Shown here one piece after another: positions 4,227 through 54,025 of a stretch of DNA of 64,000 nt (position 1 is its first letter; the number at the start of each line of letters is the position of its first letter). The position numbers and the translations under genes are program-made. Source of the DNA: an uncultured Candidatus Saccharibacteria bacterium (GTDB lineage: Bacteria; Patescibacteriota; Saccharimonadia; Saccharimonadales; JAGQNJ01). The notes under the pieces were generated by a model that saw only the letters and a program-made list of their open reading frames with translations, did not search any database and was not told the DNA's origin. Location: the NCBI GenBank assembly GCA_964510945.1, contig CAZEED010000001.1:98774-162773 (forward strand). Reading direction: 5' to 3'.

Positions 4227-6701
4227 ATGCACCCAAATTCATCTGACTTTCAAGAGTTCTTAAATCACCTGACGGAAAACGCCCTGCAAAGTTTGCGACA
4301 CGCCGACGCTATTGCTCGTAGTGCAAATAGTCCGTACGTAGGTACAGAGCACCTACTGCTCGGTGTATTGGCGCAGGAAGGGTCGTTAGGCTCAAAAGTG
4401 TTAGTTGACGCAGGCGTAACTCTTGATAAAGCTCGGGTTGCGCTAAATCTAAGCCCAAAGAATATCATAATTAATATGGGCGCTAAGGGGCTGAGTGAGA
4501 CCGCAAAATTGACATTAAAAATGGCCTACGATGTAGCACAGGAATTTAATCAAGAGTTCTGCGGGACAGAGCATATTGTGTATAGTATTTTGACTCAGAA
4601 GAATGCTCGAGCCACAGTTTTGGTTAGAGATATGAGAGTTGATGTTGATCGACTAATAACTGAGCTAGAACAATTTTTAAATAAGCAACAATATGATGAG
4701 AACGGCAGTCCGGGTTCAACAAAGCGAGTTAAAAAAGGCAGAAAAACTGCTTTAGACTTTTTTGGCACAGATTTGACCGCTCAGGCAAAAGAAGGAAAGC
4801 TTGATCCAGTAGTTGGTAGAGACCCACAGATCAGACGACTAATCACTATTTTAAATCGTAGAACCAAAAATAACCCAGTATTGATCGGTGAGCCAGGAGT
4901 AGGAAAAACTGCAATCGCTGAGGGGCTTGCTCAAAGAATAGTAAGCGAGGACGTTCCTGACGGTTTGTTGGACAAAAAGATAATAATGCTCGATCTAGCG
5001 GGTATGATCGCAGGGACTAAATACAGGGGCGAATTTGAAGATCGCCTGAAGAAAGTCATGAATGAACTAGAACGAGATAGGAATATTATAATTTTTATCG
5101 ACGAACTTCATTTGATTGTTGGTGCAGGCGCCGCTGAGGGTGCTATGGATGCCGGGAATATTCTAAAACCGGCACTCGCTCGAGGTAAGATTCAGATGAT
5201 TGGTGCTACGACGACAAATGAATATACTAAGCACATCGAGAAAGACGCCGCGTTAGAGCGTCGACTACAGCCCATTCAAGTGCCAGAAACGAACGTTAAT
5301 GAAACAATAGCAATCCTAAAAGGTCTGCGTAAACATTACGAAGCTTTCCACGGAGTAACTATTAGCGATGAAGTTATAACGGATACTGTTCAGCTAGCTA
5401 AAAGGTATATTAATGACAGATTCATGCCTGATAAAGCAATTGATCTTATAGACGAGACTGCGGCGCATCTTCGCCTAGATAAAGGTAGAACACCACCGGA
5501 AGTGAGAAGGCTTAAACAAGAGCTGAAGTTAGTTAATACCCGTATTGAAGATGCAGTTGATGCGGAAGATTACGAGAGAGCCGCCCAAAATAAACAAAGG
5601 GCCAGTCAGATTCAAGAAGAGCTCAAAAAACTAAATTCAAATGAAAAAGTAAACAAAAAAATTGTTATGAATAGCGAGGATGTCGCCGGAACAGTTGCAC
5701 GTATGACCGGTGTACCAGCTAGAAAAGTTATTAGATCTGAAGCAAAGTATCTGATGAACCTAGAAAAGTCTTTAGGTAAGTATGTTATAGGTCAAGACGA
5801 GGCCGTTGAGGCCGTATCTAAGGCTATTAGACGAAATAGATCAGGAGTTGGTAGCGAAAAACGGCCTGTTGGCTCATTCATTTTCCTAGGACCAACAGGG
5901 GTAGGTAAAACGGAACTTGCTAGAGTGCTGGCTAGAGAATTTTATGGATCAGAAGAAGCGCTAGTAAAAATAGACATGAGTGAATTTAGCGAACGACATA
6001 CTGTTGCGCGTTTAGTAGGTGCTCCTGCAGGATACGTTGGATACGATGATGGCGGACAATTAACTGACAAAATCAGACGTCAACCTTATAGTTTAGTTTT
6101 GTTTGACGAGATTGAAAAAGCTCATCCTGAAGTTTTTAACATGCTACTACAAATATTAGAAGATGGACATTTAACTGACGCCAAAGGACGAAAAATTGAT
6201 TTTACTAACACTATAGTGATTATGACTAGCAATATCGGAGCCGAAAAACTCCAGAAAGAAGCGTCATTTGGCTTTTCGGTAAACACTAGCAAACAATTAG
6301 AAAATCTCGACGAGCTTCACAAAGCCAATAAAGATAAGGTGCTAGATGATTTGAAGAAAATGCTACGTCCAGAACTGCTGAATAGAATCGATAAAACAAT
6401 CGTATTTAGAGCTTTAACGAAAAAAGATATTATTCGAATACTTGATCTTCAGGTTGATGAGTTGAAAGAGCGTTTAGTAAAGCATGGTCTTAGCGTTAAA
6501 CTGACGCCTCAGGCTAAGCAATACATGCTAGACAATGGTTATGATGCCAAAAACGGTGTCCGACCGCTCAGACGGCTCCTGCAAGACACGTTGGAGGACT
6601 ATATTGCATCAGAGCTATTGTCTGACAAATATAAAAAAGGCGACATCATATCTATTGATACAAAAAAACACGATTTGACGTATAAAGTAGCTACTGAATA
6701 A
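4227..6701 (+). CDS. clpC: ATP-dependent Clp protease ATPase subunit ClpC-type (Clp_N, two AAA+ modules)
   Basis: Two Walker A motifs ([16 protein letters not shown]). N-terminal Clp repeat domain. Short middle domain typical of ClpC rather than ClpB. Confidence 0.88.
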
Positions 6702-6725
6702 GCATTTTTAGTTATAATAGATAGA

Positions 6726-7694
6726 ATGAATTCCAGAAAGAAATCATTTGAGATATTCATTGTTTTCTGTTTATTGTTGGTTGGATTAGGATTTGTCTTT
6801 CGACAGGATTTGATGGATTGGTACACGCTCAGGACCTATGACCCTCCGGCATCTATTGAAAAAATAACAAAAACCAATAAATTCACCGAGTCAGGAAAAA
6901 GATATTTTTATGTAGCTCGTCCCGCGATCGTTAGAGGGGCACAATTTAATCAAAAGTGTCGGGATGGTTTGCCGACAGAGTTTTCTATAGTCCTGGGGTG
7001 TTATATCAATACTGACGGTATCTATCTTTTTAGAGTCACGGATAAGCGATTAAATGGAATTGTAGAAGTAACAGCAGCACATGAAATGTTGCATTCGGCA
7101 TACGACCGATTAAACAGTGATCAAAAAAACGAAGTAGATAAAATGTTGCAAGAAGCTTACCAGGGAATAAAAGACGTTAGGATTAAACGAACGATCGAGC
7201 AATACAAGCAACAAGATCCCTCGAGTGTCCCGAACGAACTACATTCTATACTCGGAACAGAAGTCGCAAATTTGCCCGAAGATCTCGAAAATTATTATAA
7301 GCAATATTTTAAAGATAGGACCACTATTACAGATCTGTCGTCTAGCTATGAATCAGAATTTAGCTCAAGACAGAATAAGGCCGACCAAATTGGCTTGCAG
7401 CTTTCGGGCCTTAAGTCTGAAATTGATTCCGCCCAGCAGTCAGCTAATCAAAAGCGCGCCCAACTCTTAGGTGATAAAAGTTCGTTAGATGATTTATTGG
7501 CGAGCGGAAAAACAGACGAGTATAATTCGCGTGTCGATTCATTCAATAACGAAGTCGCTGTTTACAACGCACTCGTTAAGCAAATTCAAACAAAAATAAA
7601 GTCGTATAACTTGCTGGTAGCCGAGTACCAAGACGTTTCTGTAGAGATAAATGATTTATATCAATCTATAGACAGCCGTCCAAAGTCCCTGTAA
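6726..7694 (+). CDS. Hypothetical membrane-anchored protein with HEMLH motif and C-terminal coiled-coil region
   Basis: N-terminal TM helix (IFIVFCLLLVGLGFVF). HEXXH-like HEMLH. Q/S/L-rich heptad-like C-terminus. Confidence 0.6.
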   Translation: MNSRKKSFEIFIVFCLLLVGLGFVFRQDLMDWYTLRTYDPPASIEKITKTNKFTESGKRYFYVARPAIVRGAQFNQKCRDGLPTEFSIVLGCYINTDGIYLFRVTDKRLNGIVEVTAAHEMLHSAYDRLNSDQKNEVDKMLQEAYQGIKDVRIKRTIEQYKQQDPSSVPNELHSILGTEVANLPEDLENYYKQYFKDRTTITDLSSSYESEFSSRQNKADQIGLQLSGLKSEIDSAQQSANQKRAQLLGDKSSLDDLLASGKTDEYNSRVDSFNNEVAVYNALVKQIQTKIKSYNLLVAEYQDVSVEINDLYQSIDSRPKSL

Positions 7695-7714
7695 TCTGAT
7701 ACAATTTTATCTAT

Positions 7715-9049
7715 ATGGCAAAACAGCAAAGAATGTATGTTTGTAGTAATTGTGGTGCTGAGTCTATTGTCTGGGCGGGAAAATGTCAGAGTTGCCAAGA
7801 ATGGAATACTTTAGAAGAAGTAGTAATCGAGAAGAATGTCAGTAAAAGCGCTTCTAAAACGGAAATAAAAATTGTTAACGCAAAAGATGCAATCAACAAT
7901 TTTGAAAAACGAATTGTTGTTGGAATAAGTGAAGTTGATAAAGTTTTGGGCGGAGGATTGGTTAAGGGTGGAGTTGTATTAATTGCTGGAGAACCCGGAA
8001 TTGGAAAAAGCACTCTTTTGTTACAGATGGCCGATGGTTCGGGTGAAAAATCGAAAGTTTTATATGTTAGTGCAGAAGAATCTATTCATCAAGTCGGTCT
8101 GAGAGCGGGTAGGTTAGGAGTAGAAAAAAGTAATATTTCTTTATCGGACGAAACAGATGTGGATTCAATCTCAAACGCGATAAGTTCAAAAAAATTTGAT
8201 GTAGTGATAGTGGATTCTATTCAAACTATATCTACAAATCTACTATCAAGTTCATCTGGTTCTATTAGCCAAATCACTAGTTGTGCTCATATGTTGATCG
8301 AAGCAGCAAAATCATCAAATACAGCAATTATGATCGTTGGACATGTCACTAAAGAGGGAAGTATTGCTGGACCAAAGATCCTCGAGCATCTTGTTGATGT
8401 AGTATTACAGCTGGAAGGTGATAGATACGGTGGCTTTAAATTACTGAGGAGTATAAAAAATCGTTTTGGGAGTACCAATGAGGTGGCTATTTTGGAAATG
8501 GCTGAGAATGGACTAAGAATAGTAGATAACCCTTCAAAAGAACTGCTAAAAGAGCGGCAAATAACTGATGGATCGGTAGTGCTAGCTACAATGGAAGGCA
8601 CACGGCCAGTGCTAGTTGAGGTTCAGGCGCTTGTAAACAAAACTGCCTACGGCTACCCTAAACGCACCGCTAGTGGATTTGATATAAATAGGCTAAATCT
8701 TCTGATTGCAGTTCTAGAGAAAAGGACTAAGCTAAATCTTGCCGATAAAGATATATACATTAATATCGTTGGGGGTATTAGAGTGACCGAGAATGCCGCT
8801 GACCTAGCTGTTTGTATGGCTATAGGATCAGCGGCGAAAGGTCTTAAACTAAAAACTAACTCTGTGGTTTTTGGAGAAATTGGACTAAGCGGTGAAGTTC
8901 GGCATGTTGCAAGTGTTGAAAAAAGAATTCTAGAATCAACAAAAATGGGTTTTAAACAGACGATTGGGCCAAAATCAATGGCCGTAACTAGCCCAAATCA
9001 TTACCGAGCTAAAGATATTCGTACAACTTTAAACGACTTCTTGAAATAG
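7715..9049 (+). CDS. radA: DNA repair protein RadA/Sms
   Basis: N-terminal C4 zinc finger (CSNCGAE..CQSCQEW). RecA-like Walker A GEPGIGKST. Lon-protease-like C-terminal domain. Confidence 0.9.
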   Translation: MAKQQRMYVCSNCGAESIVWAGKCQSCQEWNTLEEVVIEKNVSKSASKTEIKIVNAKDAINNFEKRIVVGISEVDKVLGGGLVKGGVVLIAGEPGIGKSTLLLQMADGSGEKSKVLYVSAEESIHQVGLRAGRLGVEKSNISLSDETDVDSISNAISSKKFDVVIVDSIQTISTNLLSSSSGSISQITSCAHMLIEAAKSSNTAIMIVGHVTKEGSIAGPKILEHLVDVVLQLEGDRYGGFKLLRSIKNRFGSTNEVAILEMAENGLRIVDNPSKELLKERQITDGSVVLATMEGTRPVLVEVQALVNKTAYGYPKRTASGFDINRLNLLIAVLEKRTKLNLADKDIYINIVGGIRVTENAADLAVCMAIGSAAKGLKLKTNSVVFGEIGLSGEVRHVASVEKRILESTKMGFKQTIGPKSMAVTSPNHYRAKDIRTTLNDFLK

Positions 9050-31092: not shown

Positions 31093-33180
31093 ATGGCGGA
31101 CAAAAAATCAGATCTAAAAAATTATAGAAATATCGGTATTATAGCGCATATTGATGCTGGTAAAACTACAACAACAGAGGGTATTCTTTACCGTACTGGC
31201 TTAAAGCACAAAATTGGTGCAGTTCACGAAGGTGAAACGACCACCGACTGGATGGAACAAGAACGCGAACGCGGTATCACCATCACATCTGCCGCGGTTA
31301 CCTGTTTCTGGAAAGATCACAAGATCAACATCATAGACACACCTGGGCACATTGACTTCACCGCCGAAGTTGAACGTAGCCTAAGAGTACTAGATGGTGC
31401 TGTAACAGTATTTGACGGCAAAATGGGTGTCGAGAGTCAATCAGAGACAGTATGGCGTCAAGCGAACAAATATAATGTCCCTCGGATCTGTTTTATTAAC
31501 AAAATTAACCAAACAGGTGGCGATTTCTACAAATCACTTGATACTATTCACGCAAGGTTAACAAAACGTGCTTTTCCGATACATCTACCATTAGGTTTCG
31601 AACAGTCGATTAATGGAATCATTGATCTGATTAGTATGAAAGCATACACCTATAAAGAGTTTACTGATCACGAATTAGTCGAATCAGACATCCCAGAGAA
31701 TATGGCAGATCAGGTAAAGAAGTACCGAAGTCTATTGGTCGAAAACGCAGTAGCCGAAGATGAAAAAATCCTAGAAAAATTCTTCGAAGTTGGAGAAGAT
31801 GGATTATCAGAGGATGAAATAAGGCAAGCCGTCCGAACAGCAACACTTACCAGTGATTTCTTCCCTGTAACGGGTGGTGATGGTCGCGGGGTGATTGTAG
31901 AGAAAGTCCTTGATGCAGTTAATGACTTTTTACCAAGCCCACTAGATCGTGGCTCTGTCTGGGGCACACATCCTAAGAGTGGCGATGAGATTGAAAGAAA
32001 ACCTTCAGAGTCTGAGCCAATGTCAGCTTTAGCGTTTAAAATTGCAACTGATCCTTTTGTAGGTAAATTATGCTTTGTAAGAGTATATTCAGGTAAGTTG
32101 CAGGCAGGATCATATGTCTATAACAGCTCTACAGGCGAAAAAGAACGTGTTGGACGCGTTGTACGTATGCAAGCCGATAAACGAGAAGACATTACAGAGA
32201 TTAGCGCTGGTGACATAGCTGCGATAGTAGGCCTAAAAGGTACTACGACTGGTAATACCCTATGTGACGTAAATAACACAGTTGTACTCGAGAATATTAC
32301 TTTCCCTGATCCACCGGTATCGATTGCCATTGAGCCAAAAACTAAAGCCGATCAAGAAAAGATGGGTATTGCTTTGCAAAGACTAGCCGAAGAAGATCCA
32401 ACCTTCCAAGTAAAGGTTGATCACGAGACAGGGCAAACAATTATTAAAGGGATGGGTGAATTGCACCTCGAAATCATTGTCGATCGAATGAAAAGAGAAT
32501 TTGCTGTTGAGGCTAACATTGGTCAACCGCAAGTTGCTTATCGCGAGACAATCCGAAAAGATGGTGTTGAAGTACAAGGCAAATTTATCCGACAATCAGG
32601 TGGACGAGGTCAATATGGTGACGTTTGGCTGCGACTTTCGCAAAATGAACAAGGTAAGGGCTTTGAATTCATCAACAAAATTAAGGGTGGTGTGATTCCT
32701 GCAGAATATATTAAGCCAGTTGAAGAGGGAATCAAAGAAGCCATGAGCAATGGAGTACTCGCTGGATATCCAGTCGTAGACATCGTTGCCGAACTTTATG
32801 ATGGTAGCTATCATGACGTGGACTCTAGTGAAATGGCCTTTAAAGTTGCAGGATCTATGGCATTACAAGCGGGTGTTAAACAAGCTGCGCCAGTATTACT
32901 AGAGCCAGTGATGAAAGTAGTAGTTGTTACACCTGAAGAGTTTATGGGTGAAGTTATTGGTGACCTTAATAGTAAACGTGGTCGTATCGAGTCTATGGAA
33001 GATCTAACAGCCGGTATTAAAGAAATTACAGCCTTTGTACCACTCGGAGAAATGTTTGGCTACACTACTAATCTACGTAGCAATACACAAGGTCGCGCTA
33101 GCTCAAGCATGGAGCTGGATCACTACGCTGATGTTCCAAGCCACGTAGCCGAAGCAATCATCGCCAAAAACAGTAAATAA
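31093..33180 (+). CDS. fusA: Elongation factor G
   Basis: GTPase motifs ([18 protein letters not shown]). EF-G domains II-V. Confidence 0.95.
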
Positions 33181-33241: not shown

Positions 33242-34048
33242 CTATTTATTTATATTCGTTCCGTCTCCGAATAATTTACCAGAATTAAAATCAGCGCGCA
33301 TCCCCGTATAATCGCCAGTAGGTAACTGTATACTCCTAACCCTTATTGCAGCAATATCTATAGGATCTCCCATGACCGCTACATACATTCTCGCTTTTAC
33401 TTGTCTATTGACTGGGGTGCCATAGTCATCAGTGTCATATATGTACTCGTTAAAGCCGTAGCAACCTATTCTACGTGCAGTCTTATTACTTTCTTGTCGA
33501 TGGTCATAACTACTATTACTAGTTGTATACCATGATCTTGTTCCTTCTCTGTATAAACGAATGCTAACATGCGTATTCCAACTTTTTGCTTTCCAGCAAA
33601 GCTGTACTGCCATCGGACGATTACGAGTGTTTTCGGGCTTTGGAATGATAAAAGACTTTGATATATAGGTCATTCTTGGCGTATATAGACTAGTTCTAGA
33701 TCTCCAACCATTTATTTTACGCCCTTTAGAATTAGTGGATACTTTGATCTTGTGGCCAACAGACCTCCAATTTACTTGCGGAATACTAGTATCATACTGA
33801 TCTTCATTATTATTTTCTGCTGCTGCGTCGTCGTAGTTGAGTACTTTAATAGGTTTTTTCTCTACTATATCCCCAGCCGGATATGTTTTGCTGTAACCCT
33901 TCGATTGCGCGTCTGAATTTCTGATGTTGAATAAATCATTTTTGTATGCGAATACCCCTAAAGCTAACACTAAACCAATCAATAGCGACATAACTAATAT
34001 TGGTTGAAATCTACGATTTGTAGTTTTAGTTTTATTATTTGACTTCAT
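33242..34048 (-). CDS. Paralog A of an unknown secreted/membrane-anchored protein family (268 aa)
   Basis: Basic N-terminus plus single TM anchor. Conserved GWR, (M/L)A(V/L)xxCW(K/R), (H/Y)R(Y/Q)E, I(G/A)CYGF blocks shared with the two upstream paralogs. Confidence 0.7.
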   Translation of the reverse strand: MKSNNKTKTTNRRFQPILVMSLLIGLVLALGVFAYKNDLFNIRNSDAQSKGYSKTYPAGDIVEKKPIKVLNYDDAAAENNNEDQYDTSIPQVNWRSVGHKIKVSTNSKGRKINGWRSRTSLYTPRMTYISKSFIIPKPENTRNRPMAVQLCWKAKSWNTHVSIRLYREGTRSWYTTSNSSYDHRQESNKTARRIGCYGFNEYIYDTDDYGTPVNRQVKARMYVAVMGDPIDIAAIRVRSIQLPTGDYTGMRADFNSGKLFGDGTNINK

Positions 34049-34080
34049 ATGTTTAGTCTCATTTCAATTATTTAATATAA

Positions 34081-34881
34081 TTATCTTGTGATGTCCGTTT
34101 CGAATTGTCTCAGGTAATATCCATTACTGTCGTGTTCTTGTGGTTTTGTTGGTTCAAAGATTTTAATAGATGCCAGTTCAATGCCACCTTCAGGTACTTT
34201 AATGAAGAGTTTTGCTTTTATGGATTTTTTTATTCTTACCGCGTATTGTCCTCGATGTATTGGCTCACTCTGCGGATGTGATCTAGGTACGACAGATTTA
34301 TAGCCAACATCATAAAAACCCCAGCAAGCAATTTCGCGATACCGATTAGGATCGCTTTCATATCGATGGGTGAAATTTATATGATATGCTCCATCCTTGG
34401 TCCCCCACACTTTATTGATATCTCTACTCAAACGTAGTTTTATGGTTGTATTCTTTTCTAGAGCTCGCCAGCAAACATACACAGCCATTGGACGTTTTGA
34501 TGTAGGAATGGTAAACCATTTACTGAAGTAGACCCATCCTTCGTTATCTAGAGTGTGTTTTTCATCGGCGTGATTCATCCTCCAACCATCAATCATAGGG
34601 CCACCTGGTTTAGCGGGCATACGAATATTCCCGCCTTGAGATTTAACCGATACTAACTTACCTCTGTAATACTTGAATGGTGTGGGTTTGTAATTAACTA
34701 TTTTTCCCGCAGCATAGGTTTTATTATATCGTTTAGAATCCGCCGACGAATCTTTTAGATTCAGCAAATCCATACTAAAAATAACAAGTCCAATTACGAA
34801 TATTAATATAATTGAAAAAGTTATAATTTTTGATTTATTTGATAATTTAAGATCCTTATTTTTCTTTTTTTTGTTTGCCAT
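34081..34881 (-). CDS. Paralog B of the same family (266 aa)
   Basis: MANKKKKNK..signal-anchor..IRMPAKPGGPMIDGWR..MAVYVCWR..IACWGFYD. AAGGA RBS. A8 tract in codons 3-6. Confidence 0.7.
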   Translation of the reverse strand: MANKKKKNKDLKLSNKSKIITFSIILIFVIGLVIFSMDLLNLKDSSADSKRYNKTYAAGKIVNYKPTPFKYYRGKLVSVKSQGGNIRMPAKPGGPMIDGWRMNHADEKHTLDNEGWVYFSKWFTIPTSKRPMAVYVCWRALEKNTTIKLRLSRDINKVWGTKDGAYHINFTHRYESDPNRYREIACWGFYDVGYKSVVPRSHPQSEPIHRGQYAVRIKKSIKAKLFIKVPEGGIELASIKIFEPTKPQEHDSNGYYLRQFETDITR

Positions 34882-34912
34882 ATTTGTCCTTAGCTACATT
34901 TATTAGTTATCT

Positions 34913-35842
34913 TTAATTGGTGATGTCAGATTCAAACTGTCTATCGTAATAATTTGCACCGAGTTTAGATCTTTCAGGCGGTTGTGTTGGGTGAAAAACT
35001 TTTATTGAAGCAATTTCTACTTGGCCACGAACCTTTATATTAATTCTAGCCTTAATGGATTTGGATTTATTCATTTTTTTCATGTATTGCCCTGGATATA
35101 TTGGCTCGTTTTGCGGATGTGATCTAGGCACGACACGTTCATAGGCGATATCGTAAAAACCCCAACATTTTATTTTTTGCCACTCATCGTCACCATGTTC
35201 ATAACGATGTATATAGTTCATTATAGGCGCGCCATTTTTGTCTGACCATAATTCTCGTCTATTCTTGTTACTGAGCGTAGGACCTGCGAATAGAAGTTTT
35301 AATGATGTTTCTTTGCCGGACAATGATCTCCAGCAGACATATAAAGCTAGCGGTTTATCACTCTTGTCTTTTGGGATATTTATTTCTTTTGAAAAATAAG
35401 ACCAGTCAGGTAAATATGTAGTAAGTCTAGGGTTTACAGCTTTTTTATTGGGTTTTAACTTTTTAAAAAGTTTATCGTAGGTTGATGAGTTAACTAATGG
35501 CGATCGCCATCCCTTAATCATAGGACCTCCTGGTTTGGCAGGCATTCTTATGTTCTTTCCTAAAGATTTCATCATTACAAAATCATCGTCGCCGTATATT
35601 CCGCTATCTTTACGAACTTTTGTTTTGCCGTAGTTAACGATTTCGCCGGCTGGGTAAGTTCTATTGTAATTCTTAGAATCTGCAGATGAGTCTCTTAGAT
35701 TCAGCAAATCCATACTATAAATTAATAATGCAAGTACAATTACTAATAAAATTGAAAAAGTTATAATTTTTGTTTTATTTGATAATTTAAGATTCTTATT
35801 TTTCTTTTTTTGTTTGGCATTTTCTCTCCTATACTTAAGCAT
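34913..35842 (-). CDS. Paralog C of the same family (~309 aa from ATG 35842; track TTG at 35869)
   Basis: About 45% identity to paralog B overall, but near-identical DNA over the first ~60 codons and upstream region. Has an A7 tract where paralog B has A8. Confidence 0.65.
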   Translation of the reverse strand: MLKYRRENAKQKKKNKNLKLSNKTKIITFSILLVIVLALLIYSMDLLNLRDSSADSKNYNRTYPAGEIVNYGKTKVRKDSGIYGDDDFVMMKSLGKNIRMPAKPGGPMIKGWRSPLVNSSTYDKLFKKLKPNKKAVNPRLTTYLPDWSYFSKEINIPKDKSDKPLALYVCWRSLSGKETSLKLLFAGPTLSNKNRRELWSDKNGAPIMNYIHRYEHGDDEWQKIKCWGFYDIAYERVVPRSHPQNEPIYPGQYMKKMNKSKSIKARINIKVRGQVEIASIKVFHPTQPPERSKLGANYYDRQFESDITN

Positions 35843-36034
35843 TATACATAACACACTAATTGATTCCAATTTCTTATTTTATGTACTCTATTAACTATAA
35901 TTAAGAGTTAAAAGAATAATCCAAAAATGATTCTTTACTTGTATGCGTATTTTCGCTATTATATTCAGGTATCTCGCGTGAGTATTATATACTTATGCTA
36001 AATAATTAAGTAATTAACAGGAGTAACAACTAAA

Positions 36035-37216
36035 ATGGCAGATTTTGATCGAAGTAAACCACACGTAAACGTTGGAACAATGGGGCACGTTGACCATGGT
36101 AAAACAACACTAACAGCAGCAATTACAGCTGTACTAGCTAAAAAGCTTCCTAGCGACGTTAACAAACCAGTTAAATACGACGAAATTGACAAAGCACCAG
36201 AAGAAAAAGCACGTGGTATAACAATTGCGACATCTCACCAAGAATACGAGAGTAAAAAACGACACTACGCACACGTTGATATGCCAGGTCACGCTGACTA
36301 CGTCAAGAACATGATTACAGGTGCCGCACAGATTGACGGAGCGATTCTAGTAGTATCAGCTGCAGATGGCCCTATGCCTCAAACACGAGAACACGTACTA
36401 CTCGCAAAACAGGTCGGCGTTCCATCGATACTTGTATTCATGAACAAGATGGACCTTGCAGATCCAGAACTAGTTGAACTAGTAGAAATGGACATTCGTG
36501 AACTACTCGGCAAATACGAATTCGACGAGAACGCTCCAATTATTAAAGGTTCTGCAACTAAAGCTCTTGAAGGTAGTGCCGCAGATGAAGATGCCGTTAT
36601 GGAACTTGTCGACAAGATGGACGAATATGTTCCAGAACCAAAACGAGACCTTGATAAAGACTTCTTGATGGCTATTGAAGACGTTTTCTCAATTAAAGGA
36701 CGCGGAACTGTAGCAACCGGTCGTATTGAACAAGGAGTTGTTAAGGTAAACGAAGAAGTTGAAATTGTCGGTATCCATGATACAAAAAAGACTGTTGTTA
36801 CAGGTGTAGAGATGTTTAAAAAGAATCTAGATCAAGGTCAGGCTGGAGATAACGTCGGAATCTTACTTCGAGGTATCGAACGTGATGATATCGAACGTGG
36901 TCAAGTTTTGGCTAAACCCGGTTCAATTACGCCTCACACAGAATTTGACGCAGAAGTATACGTGCTAACAAAAGAAGAGGGTGGACGACACACCCCATTC
37001 TTTAAAGGTTACAAACCTCAATTCTACTTCCGAACAACGGACGTTACAGGTGAGGTAGAACTACCGGCTGATAAAGAAATGGTCATGCCTGGTGATACAG
37101 TAACTTTCAAGGTTAAATTGATCCAACCGATTGCTATGGATCAAGGTCAACGATTCGCCATCCGTGAAGGTGGACGAACAGTTGGCGCCGGTGTTGTAAC
37201 AAAAATTACAAAATAA
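36035..37216 (+). CDS. tuf: Elongation factor Tu
   Basis: [21 protein letters not shown] motifs. Full-length EF-Tu. Confidence 0.97.
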
Positions 37217-52974: not shown

Positions 52975-53014
52975 TTTTCAAATTTTTGAGTAAAATAACA
53001 TTTTCGCAGTTTCA

Positions 53015-53392
53015 ATACTTTTGACCGCCAAAAGTATGACAAAAGCTCGGGCTTAACGTTTTTTCTTGACTAACTCACTAGTCAAGACAAACAACAGTCT
53101 GCGGAACTCCCCCGCACCTATTGCTTAGACAAAAGGTGCGGGGTCAGACAGTCCTCGCCTGATAGTTGTTTGTTTGACCTGAGTCATCAGGAAAAAGCCG
53201 ATGCCCAACACAAAAAACAACCCCGCAACGTTAGTCTGGTCGTTGGCCAGATAAACGATGAGTATTACATATTGTTGGCATCCGGCTTGTCCTGAATAAC
53301 TTCGTTAAAGTAACAACAAAAAAGGCGAGGACTGTTTGAAGTTAGTAGTATGCCTGAGTGGCATATTACTAACAAGTTTCGCAGTCTGTTGT
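53015..53392 (+). ncRNA. Structured RNA-like element, copy 2 (full length ~380 nt) with nested long-range helices
   Basis: 5' module homologous to 37799-37990. 16-bp helix 53145-53160/53323-53338. 13-bp helix 53091-53103/53380-53392. Local hairpins 53015-53037, 53067-53088, 53110-53143, 53344-53368. No ORF. Confidence 0.35.
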
Positions 53393-53657
53393 TATCTTTA
53401 ACTAGAAGTTATATAAAGACAAACGAAAAGCCAAGAGTTTTGTATTACTTTGGCGATACAAAGTAATAGTTTTTGAATTATATTTACAAAATTTCTGACA
53501 TGATTGATAATACTTGACAAATTATATATGAAGCTGTATTGTCTTATGGTTATGTTTCAAAACATTATAAACAACACAACTTATTGGTTTACCTCCAAAT
53601 ATTCATGGCGGCAAACTTCGTATTGTCTATAAAATAACAAACTATCAAGAAATATTA

Positions 53658-53680
53658 ACCGCCACCAAGGCGGTTTTTTA
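53658..53680 (+). terminator. Rho-independent terminator (accgcc/ggcggt + T6) upstream of the GC-richer cassette
   Basis: 6-bp GC stem, 5-nt loop, T-tract. Lies 20 nt before the ATG at 53700. Confidence 0.6.
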
Positions 53681-53699
53681 ATAGTAAAGGAGAATAATC

Positions 53700-53960
53700 A
53701 TGATAAGACCAGAGCATAATCCAGAGAGAGTAACGGCAGGTCTACCGGACCAGATAGAATCAATCCCGAGTAGATTGCTAATTGCTCTAGATCAAGGAGT
53801 AATTAAAGAATCAGATTTAGTACCAAATATTGCAGCGACTATAAGCAGTAATCATAGGCCCGAAGTTGACCCACCATTAAATATTCATGAACAAGTAGAA
53901 CGAACCAGACACATAAATCAATTAGCAGCTAGCTGCGTAGAACAATTTTCAAAACAATAA
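53700..53960 (+). CDS. Hypothetical protein (86 aa), first gene of the cassette
   Basis: Strong RBS AAAGGAGAA. No recognisable motifs. Confidence 0.45.
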   Translation: MIRPEHNPERVTAGLPDQIESIPSRLLIALDQGVIKESDLVPNIAATISSNHRPEVDPPLNIHEQVERTRHINQLAASCVEQFSKQ

Positions 53961-54025
53961 GATTTAAGGAGAAAATATCATGCAAACTATAACAACAGAA
54001 CAATTACATACAGCAACTGAAGCAC

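Follow-up and report, generated by a model that had tools for sequence, protein, structure and literature searches.

The window analysed here is the whole stretch of 64,000 nucleotides. It carries three paralogous genes, A, B and C, antisense between fusA (31093-33180) and tuf (36035-37216) and inside the rpsL-rpsG-fusA-tuf-rpsJ-rplC cluster. The spacers between C, B and A measure 31-32 nt and contain no predicted terminator. The features of the locus are:

33242-34048, minus strand: paralog A, 268 aa, third gene of a putative C-B-A operon; its 5' end is without a long tract.
34081-34881, minus strand: paralog B, 266 aa, in frame behind AAGGA (34891-34887), with an A8 tract at 34865-34872.
34913-35842, minus strand: paralog C ORF as publicly annotated, 309 aa (protein P0011).
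35761-35820, minus strand: out-of-frame ORF of 19 codons, MPNKKRKIRILNYQIKQKL, and a stop; the product of the SD-led start with A7.
35805-35811, minus strand: A7 tract of paralog C (T7 on the plus strand), at codons 4-6 after the SD-led ATG.
35818-35820, minus strand: SD-proximal ATG of paralog C; the long ORF is now in another frame.
35826-35830, minus strand: Shine-Dalgarno (SD) sequence AGGAG of paralog C, 5 nt upstream of that ATG.
35831-35846, minus strand: TATAATGCTTAAGTAT, consisting of a -10 hexamer (35846-35841) and the block downstream of it, invariant in seven diverged loci.
35864-35869, minus strand: TTGGAA, a -35-like hexamer with 17 nt between it and the downstream -10; the longest ORF takes its 'TTG start' from the TTG of this hexamer.

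Two to four paralogs of this family are found at the same place in every relative long enough to show the context. The antisense fusA-tuf cassette splits an otherwise conserved str operon; we located it at 33242-35869 of the window, at 4749-8273 of locus L010, at 3501-5138 of L015 and in L002 and L012-L014, and its copy number is two in L015, three in the window and four in L010.

We started from the 5' ends of the genes. Paralog B begins AAGGACAAAT-ATG GCA AAC-A8-G and paralog C begins AGGAGAGAAA-ATG(35820-35818) CCA AAC-A7-G, a start context of ATGCCAAAC-A7-G preceded by AGGAG, so that the C tract is one A shorter than that of paralog B or of the orthologue in locus L007. A sequence-only reading of this DNA had described B as ATGGCAAAC-A8-G behind AAGGA and C as its A7 counterpart, with the homologous ATG of C running into a stop after 19 codons. 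Inspection of the sequence and translation confirmed both statements and all of their coordinates; the A7 versus A8 difference is real, although the tract covers codons 4-6 and not codons 3-6 as had been proposed. The ORF listing agreed with the same reading that the long ORF is open only from ATG 35842 (309 aa) or TTG 35869 (318 aa), the latter giving the longest ORF of C (34913-35869, minus strand). The predicted effect of an extra A was also reproduced, since in-silico translation with one A added to the C tract restored the RBS-driven start and gave a 302-aa protein MPNKKKKNKNLKLS... from the SD-ATG, which begins MPNKKKKNKNLKLSNKTKIITFS... and is colinear with B and with the orthologue P0013. 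C thus has a simple repeat in its 5' coding region in which the gain or loss of one unit decides whether the ORF is in frame with the start. Downstream of the tract it is intact: the reading frame continues uninterrupted for 302 codons, through a Lys-rich N-terminus, a TM helix and a beta-sandwich ectodomain. Because the L007 orthologue and paralog B use it in frame, the SD-led ATG is the ancestral start of C.

Next, we inspected the 5' ends of 27 distinct family genes, from the window and from loci L007-L019. The C orthologue of L007 (89% nucleotide identity) reads ATGCCAAAC-A8-G-A8-G with its SD-ATG in frame, and its protein, P0013, begins MPNKKKKKKNLKLS. The B copy of L008, represented by a single contig, reads ATGCCAAAC-A7-G and is out of frame. 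No ATG, GTG or TTG precedes its TM segment in the ORF frame, and for this reason the gene-caller product P0004 (213 aa) lacks the anchor. The tract is A8 and in frame in window B, L007 C, L017 B and L015, and A7 and out of frame in window C and L008 B. The clean A7 OFF state is thus seen twice, at one site but in different paralogs and lineages.

Two C-type copies are damaged differently. The 5' end of the C-type gene in L009 is degenerate and out of frame, and the upstream ATG is lost too. We rejected this gene as a third clean A-tract frameshift, as its A8 equals the homologous AAAAAGAA length in L012; the extra base therefore lies at some point further into the diverged stretch. The C-type copy of L010 and L011 carries an in-frame TAA, which is a non-reversible inactivation of this paralog. 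The codon splits the orthologue (KIVTY*PIKMLKDSG) at L010 4749-5678 and L011 500-1429, on contigs from at least two runs. All of the remaining family copies that we inspected are in frame. The nonsense and degenerate 5' lesions also fit ordinary gene decay.

The 5' cassette AAC-A7/8-GAAAAA.AAG.A.CT.AAATTATCAAATAAA.CAAAAATT is nearly identical in nucleotides in B- and C-type genes of five lineages, and window B and C are ~95% identical over their first ~72 nt versus ~60% further on. The near-identity of this segment implies that the A7/A8 difference is recent. The alignments indicate gene conversion of family 5' ends. The 5' end of the L008 gene looks C-like, so its A7 may have been copied by gene conversion and may not represent an independent slip.

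Other parts of the family genes also vary. P0013 (L007) and P0018 (L019) have an identical C-terminal half and different N-terminal modules. The segment VVPRSHPQxEPIxxGQY is deleted in frame in P0013, P0018 and P0004 (L008) and is absent from paralog A; the DNA that encodes it (window 35090-35140 and 34250-34300) is one of two stretches in which B and C are at least ~78% identical. Taken together, the shared and exchanged modules and this segment indicate mosaic recombination among family members. Tracts are also present in the SD-ATG spacer of an L008 family gene (A8 at 749-756, AAGG-A8-TG) and of an L007 family gene (A7 at about 353-359, AGGAG-A7-TG), where length changes could tune translation initiation.

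We then compared substitution rates between the window and L007, L008 and L017. The dN/dS was 0.35-0.37 for C, 0.15-0.20 for B and 0.16-0.23 for A, the value for C being about twice that of the other two. These ratios point to purifying selection on C-type genes that is weaker than for B and A, and the value for C would fit intermittent OFF periods, pressure to diversify or the onset of decay. C lacks the marks of a decaying pseudogene: no further disabling lesion follows the tract, and its dN/dS is not near 1.

The reading that we prefer, and to which we give a modest balance of belief, is that a slippage-type deletion has left C off or weakly expressed, as one state of a recurring ON/OFF polymorphism. 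A one-base deletion of the replication-slippage type in the nucleotide-conserved Lys-codon cassette at the 5' end of C would have produced A7 and put the SD-led start out of frame, so that ribosomes would make a 19-residue peptide. The in-frame upstream TTG and ATG are probably not in the mRNA, because they lie within the -35 and the -10 of a conserved promoter. C would then most likely be off, or at best weakly translated, in this strain, with B (A8, in frame) and A on. We speculate that lost translation of C could affect B and A too, via polarity. Within the family, the ON/OFF polymorphism recurs at one and the same tract, over the times in which strains and species diverge.

The best of the alternatives, which we nonetheless consider unlikely, is that C is translated from ATG 35842 as a 309-aa protein and that A7 is without effect on an on/off state. 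The ORF is open from this codon, and the NCBI, JGI and Logan gene callers all chose it (P0011). The resulting N-terminus is 7 residues longer, still positively charged and a predicted functional signal anchor. An intact ORF, a tract that is stable in seven assemblies and a dN/dS below 1 are likewise in keeping with a translated gene. However, this ATG (35842-35840) overlaps the last two bases of the perfectly conserved -10 hexamer of a sigma-70-like site, TTGGAA-17-TATAAT, at 35869-35841 on the minus strand. When the upstream regions of the first cassette gene from seven diverged loci were aligned, the block T(A/T)TAATGCTT(A/T)AGTAT was essentially invariant; by contrast, the flanking sequence and the spacing to the start codon differ among the loci, whose coding regions have also diverged. 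In all other loci the ATG within the block is out of frame or followed by a stop within 2-20 codons, so its conservation reflects a promoter or operator role and not use as a start codon. That it stands in frame in the window is then a by-product of the deletion. Furthermore, both an SD and a leaderless-type -10 are missing at ATG 35842, and the A7 copy of L008 has no such rescue codon. The proposal that the upstream ATG and TTG are weaker starts was therefore upheld, both being inside the conserved predicted promoter, and we regard the 'rescue' starts ATG 35842 and TTG 35869 as doubtful.

Several points soften this argument. A strict SD core precedes 26 of the 59 window genes (background 7%) and a -10-like hexamer stands 5-10 nt before the start in 10 of 59 (background 3%). 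As about half of the genome's genes have no recognisable SD, an SD-less internal start in C is conceivable. In addition, a longer transcript that includes ATG 35842 is possible, because a second, weak -10-like element, TAAAAT, stands 6 nt upstream of TTG 35869. The transcription start is moreover a prediction, and shuffled sequence yields promoter-like matches as often as this AT-rich region does. Since the annotated ATG is probably part of the promoter, the deposited 309-aa C protein is likely wrong at its N-terminus, or C is perhaps not made at all.

The upstream region has other properties of its own. The 16-nt block TATAATGCTTAAGTAT contains a near-palindrome, ATGCTTAAGTAT, that overlaps the -10 and the likely transcription start, and beyond acting as a promoter alone the block could be an operator for a regulator. 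Elsewhere in the window, 9 of the 10 genes with a TATAAT-like hexamer before the start are without an SD (examples of such hexamer genes are those at 6726, 7715, 12223, 13034, 21083, 59914 and 60781); this pattern suggests that leaderless mRNAs may be frequent in the genome. An Rfam search of the window returned tRNAs only. Between rpsI and an ORF of 724 aa with a HAD domain, about 1 kb (52975-54025) contains no ORF longer than 86 aa and no Rfam match.

A further alternative is that A7 and A8 interconvert at high frequency by slipped-strand mispairing, switching C, and potentially B, reversibly ON and OFF. We think this improbable, and we hold out equally little expectation that such switching is adaptive bet-hedging for a host-interaction protein. 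Several observations nevertheless recommend it: the same 5' tract is found ON in some paralogs and lineages and OFF in others, the ORF behind the frameshift is still intact, the family is multi-copy and in tandem with mosaic recombination, its product is predicted to be surface-exposed, and the longest homopolymers of these genomes are concentrated in family 5' ends. The A8 of paralog B is the sole homopolymer of 8 in the 64 kb, which contain 37 tracts of 7 and 128 of 6. The non-redundant related loci, 126 kb in total, contain 18 tracts of 8 nt; 17 of them fall in family genes, and 14 fall in the first ~100 nt of these genes, which make up 2.2% of the sequence (binomial P about 2e-20). Neither the window nor the related loci (126 kb, non-redundant) contain a homopolymer longer than 8 nt. 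Lys codons are AAA 74% of the time in 57 non-family genes, and all eight runs of at least three Lys in such genes are broken by AAG, none of them exceeding A7, in agreement with the known avoidance of AAA_AAA_AAA in coding sequence (PMC5009743). The family seems to tolerate or favour slightly longer, more slippery tracts than the rest of the genome. Its excess is, however, a single nucleotide and coincides with a Lys-rich positive-inside N-terminus, which together with the 74% use of AAA at Lys codons also explains the A runs.

Comparison of independent assemblies argues against rapid switching. At least four sequencing projects contributed the seven assemblies of the strain, and C has A7 in every one. 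Besides the window, six contigs encode P0011; their sources are a JGI metagenome, three runs belonging to a single SRA series and two further SRA runs. Five of these contigs (L001-L005) show 100% identity to the window across 1.4-5.9 kb, and the sixth, L006, departs from it by 2 SNPs. All six have A7 in C, and wherever a contig extends to the 5' end of B, the tract there is A8. We found no difference in C tract length among the seven assemblies and no A8 variant of the C protein in a collection of 15 billion proteins; a second protein search with C as the query gained only P0018 and again no A8 variant. Non-reversible lesions in other family members also speak against switching. The sequence-only reading had also pointed to 5' poly-A/T tracts of surface-protein genes as a classic phase-variation mechanism; the 7-8 A found here fall below the cut-off of at least 10 that PhasomeIt applies to poly-A/T tracts of the Campylobacter phasome, although the same paper notes a continuum of mutability (PMC6321876). 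What survives of the suggested slipped-strand phase switch is the occurrence of A7 OFF and A8 ON at the same tract across lineages and paralogs. For its rapid, reversible part we found no evidence: seven of seven assemblies are A7 and the A8 protein variant is missing from the collection. C appears to act like a contingency locus on an evolutionary time scale, and is at most a candidate for the rapidly switching class.

Production of full-length C from the SD-led ATG by recoding, through -1 ribosomal frameshifting or RNA-polymerase slippage, is very unlikely. The shift needed is indeed -1 on an A-rich slippery stretch, the A7 configuration occurs twice, and ribosomes as well as RNA polymerase are known to slip on A runs (PMC5009743). 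However, the zero frame AAC AAA AAA AGA gives the in-phase heptamer C AAA AAA and not X XXY YYZ, and the downstream region folds worse than shuffles (MFE -3.4 kcal/mol, z = +1.86). Bacterial transcriptional slippage has been described for runs of 9 A or T (PMC5009743), and the C run is 7. Most orthologues are simply in frame, so the frameshift arrangement is not conserved. Lacking an in-phase heptamer and a downstream structure, and with a run of only 7, C was judged an unlikely case of either programmed frameshifting or transcriptional slippage.

That sequencing or assembly under-called the C homopolymer by one base can practically be dismissed: length errors in homopolymers are common in some technologies and the window has a sharp homopolymer ceiling at 7, but the same A7 is present in the six other assemblies, short-read Logan and JGI contigs among them, those same contigs call the A8 of B correctly, and all of the window's long housekeeping ORFs (including rpoB, rpoC, fusA, ClpB, RecG, a PBP and an M1 peptidase) read through uninterrupted, although the window has 37 A/T tracts of seven nt.

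To ask what the genes encode, we searched for relatives of the proteins. Pfam and NCBIfam have no family for A, B or C, and a profile search of PDB sequences gave a chance-level match only. The family is small, with 16 clusters at 90% identity among 5.8 billion and, in an exhaustive profile search, 10 representatives at 50% identity among 1.84 billion clusters. It is found in two GTDB species and one JGI contig, and scanning GTDB genomes and JGI metagenomes brought no more than 3 additional loci. In the AlphaFold model of B (pLDDT 78, pTM 0.71), a Lys-rich tail leads into an N-terminal helix, the TM anchor at residues 15-43, and the ectodomain beyond it is modelled as a beta-sandwich; the family ectodomain has two invariant Cys. 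The best Foldseek matches of this model in the PDB are CBM6, CBM36, the GH115 C-terminal domain, Cry toxin domain III and the ephrin-receptor ligand-binding domain. Their E values are 6e-5 to 1e-3, yet their TM-scores on the query are 0.3-0.4 and their identities 7-12%. Unlike the CBM or galactose-binding-like jelly-roll domains, the family has no sequence match in Pfam, NCBIfam or the PDB, and the TM-scores to those domains are low. From the model, a reasonable prediction is that these are membrane-anchored, extracellular, possibly glycan-binding proteins. The earlier description of C as a surface-protein gene is in line with this predicted membrane-anchored extracellular product (Lys-rich tail, TM helix, beta-sandwich model), and in our preferred reading the polymorphism would affect Saccharibacteria surface proteins predicted to be membrane-anchored, with a jelly-roll ectodomain that probably binds a ligand.

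Members of the Saccharibacteria live as obligate epibionts, and the proteins on their surface determine the hosts to which they can attach. To our knowledge, very little has been learned about the ways in which such proteins are varied. The on/off lesions that recur at a single homopolymer, together with mosaic recombination, make the family a concrete, testable candidate for surface-protein variation. As a tentative extension, one we consider improbable, the fusA-tuf cassette (2-4 genes, in one Saccharibacteria clade) might be a contingency island of a lineage-restricted family of lectin-like, membrane-anchored surface proteins. It is just as tentatively that we suggest variation of the repertoire by A7/A8 slipped-strand switching and by exchange of 5' and internal cassettes between paralogs. 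If true, the island would adapt the attachment of the epibiont to its bacterial host, and no SSR phase-variation system would have been described before it in the Candidate Phyla Radiation; we found no literature on homopolymer or SSR phase variation in Saccharibacteria or Patescibacteria.

SSR contingency loci are represented by the poly-G/C genes of Campylobacter, Neisseria and Haemophilus and by poly-A/T tracts of Mycoplasma and Helicobacter surface genes. The family described here resembles them in having a homopolymer in the first codons of a (predicted) surface-protein gene where +/-1 toggles the frame, in having ON and OFF alleles among relatives of a multi-copy family, and in the concentration of the genome's longest tracts in C/B family genes. 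It differs from them in that the tract is only 7-8 A in any locus and shows no intra-strain length variation, and in that the host is a Saccharibacteria epibiont. A second point of comparison is offered by Buchnera and Blochmannia, which carry poly(A)-tract frameshift pseudogenes that are partly rescued by transcriptional slippage. Unlike these, C has a tract of 7, compared with the runs of 9 for which transcriptional slippage in bacteria is described (PMC5009743), and is an accessory surface paralog, not a housekeeping gene. Like them, C combines an AT-rich small genome with a poly(A) frameshift in an ORF that is otherwise intact.
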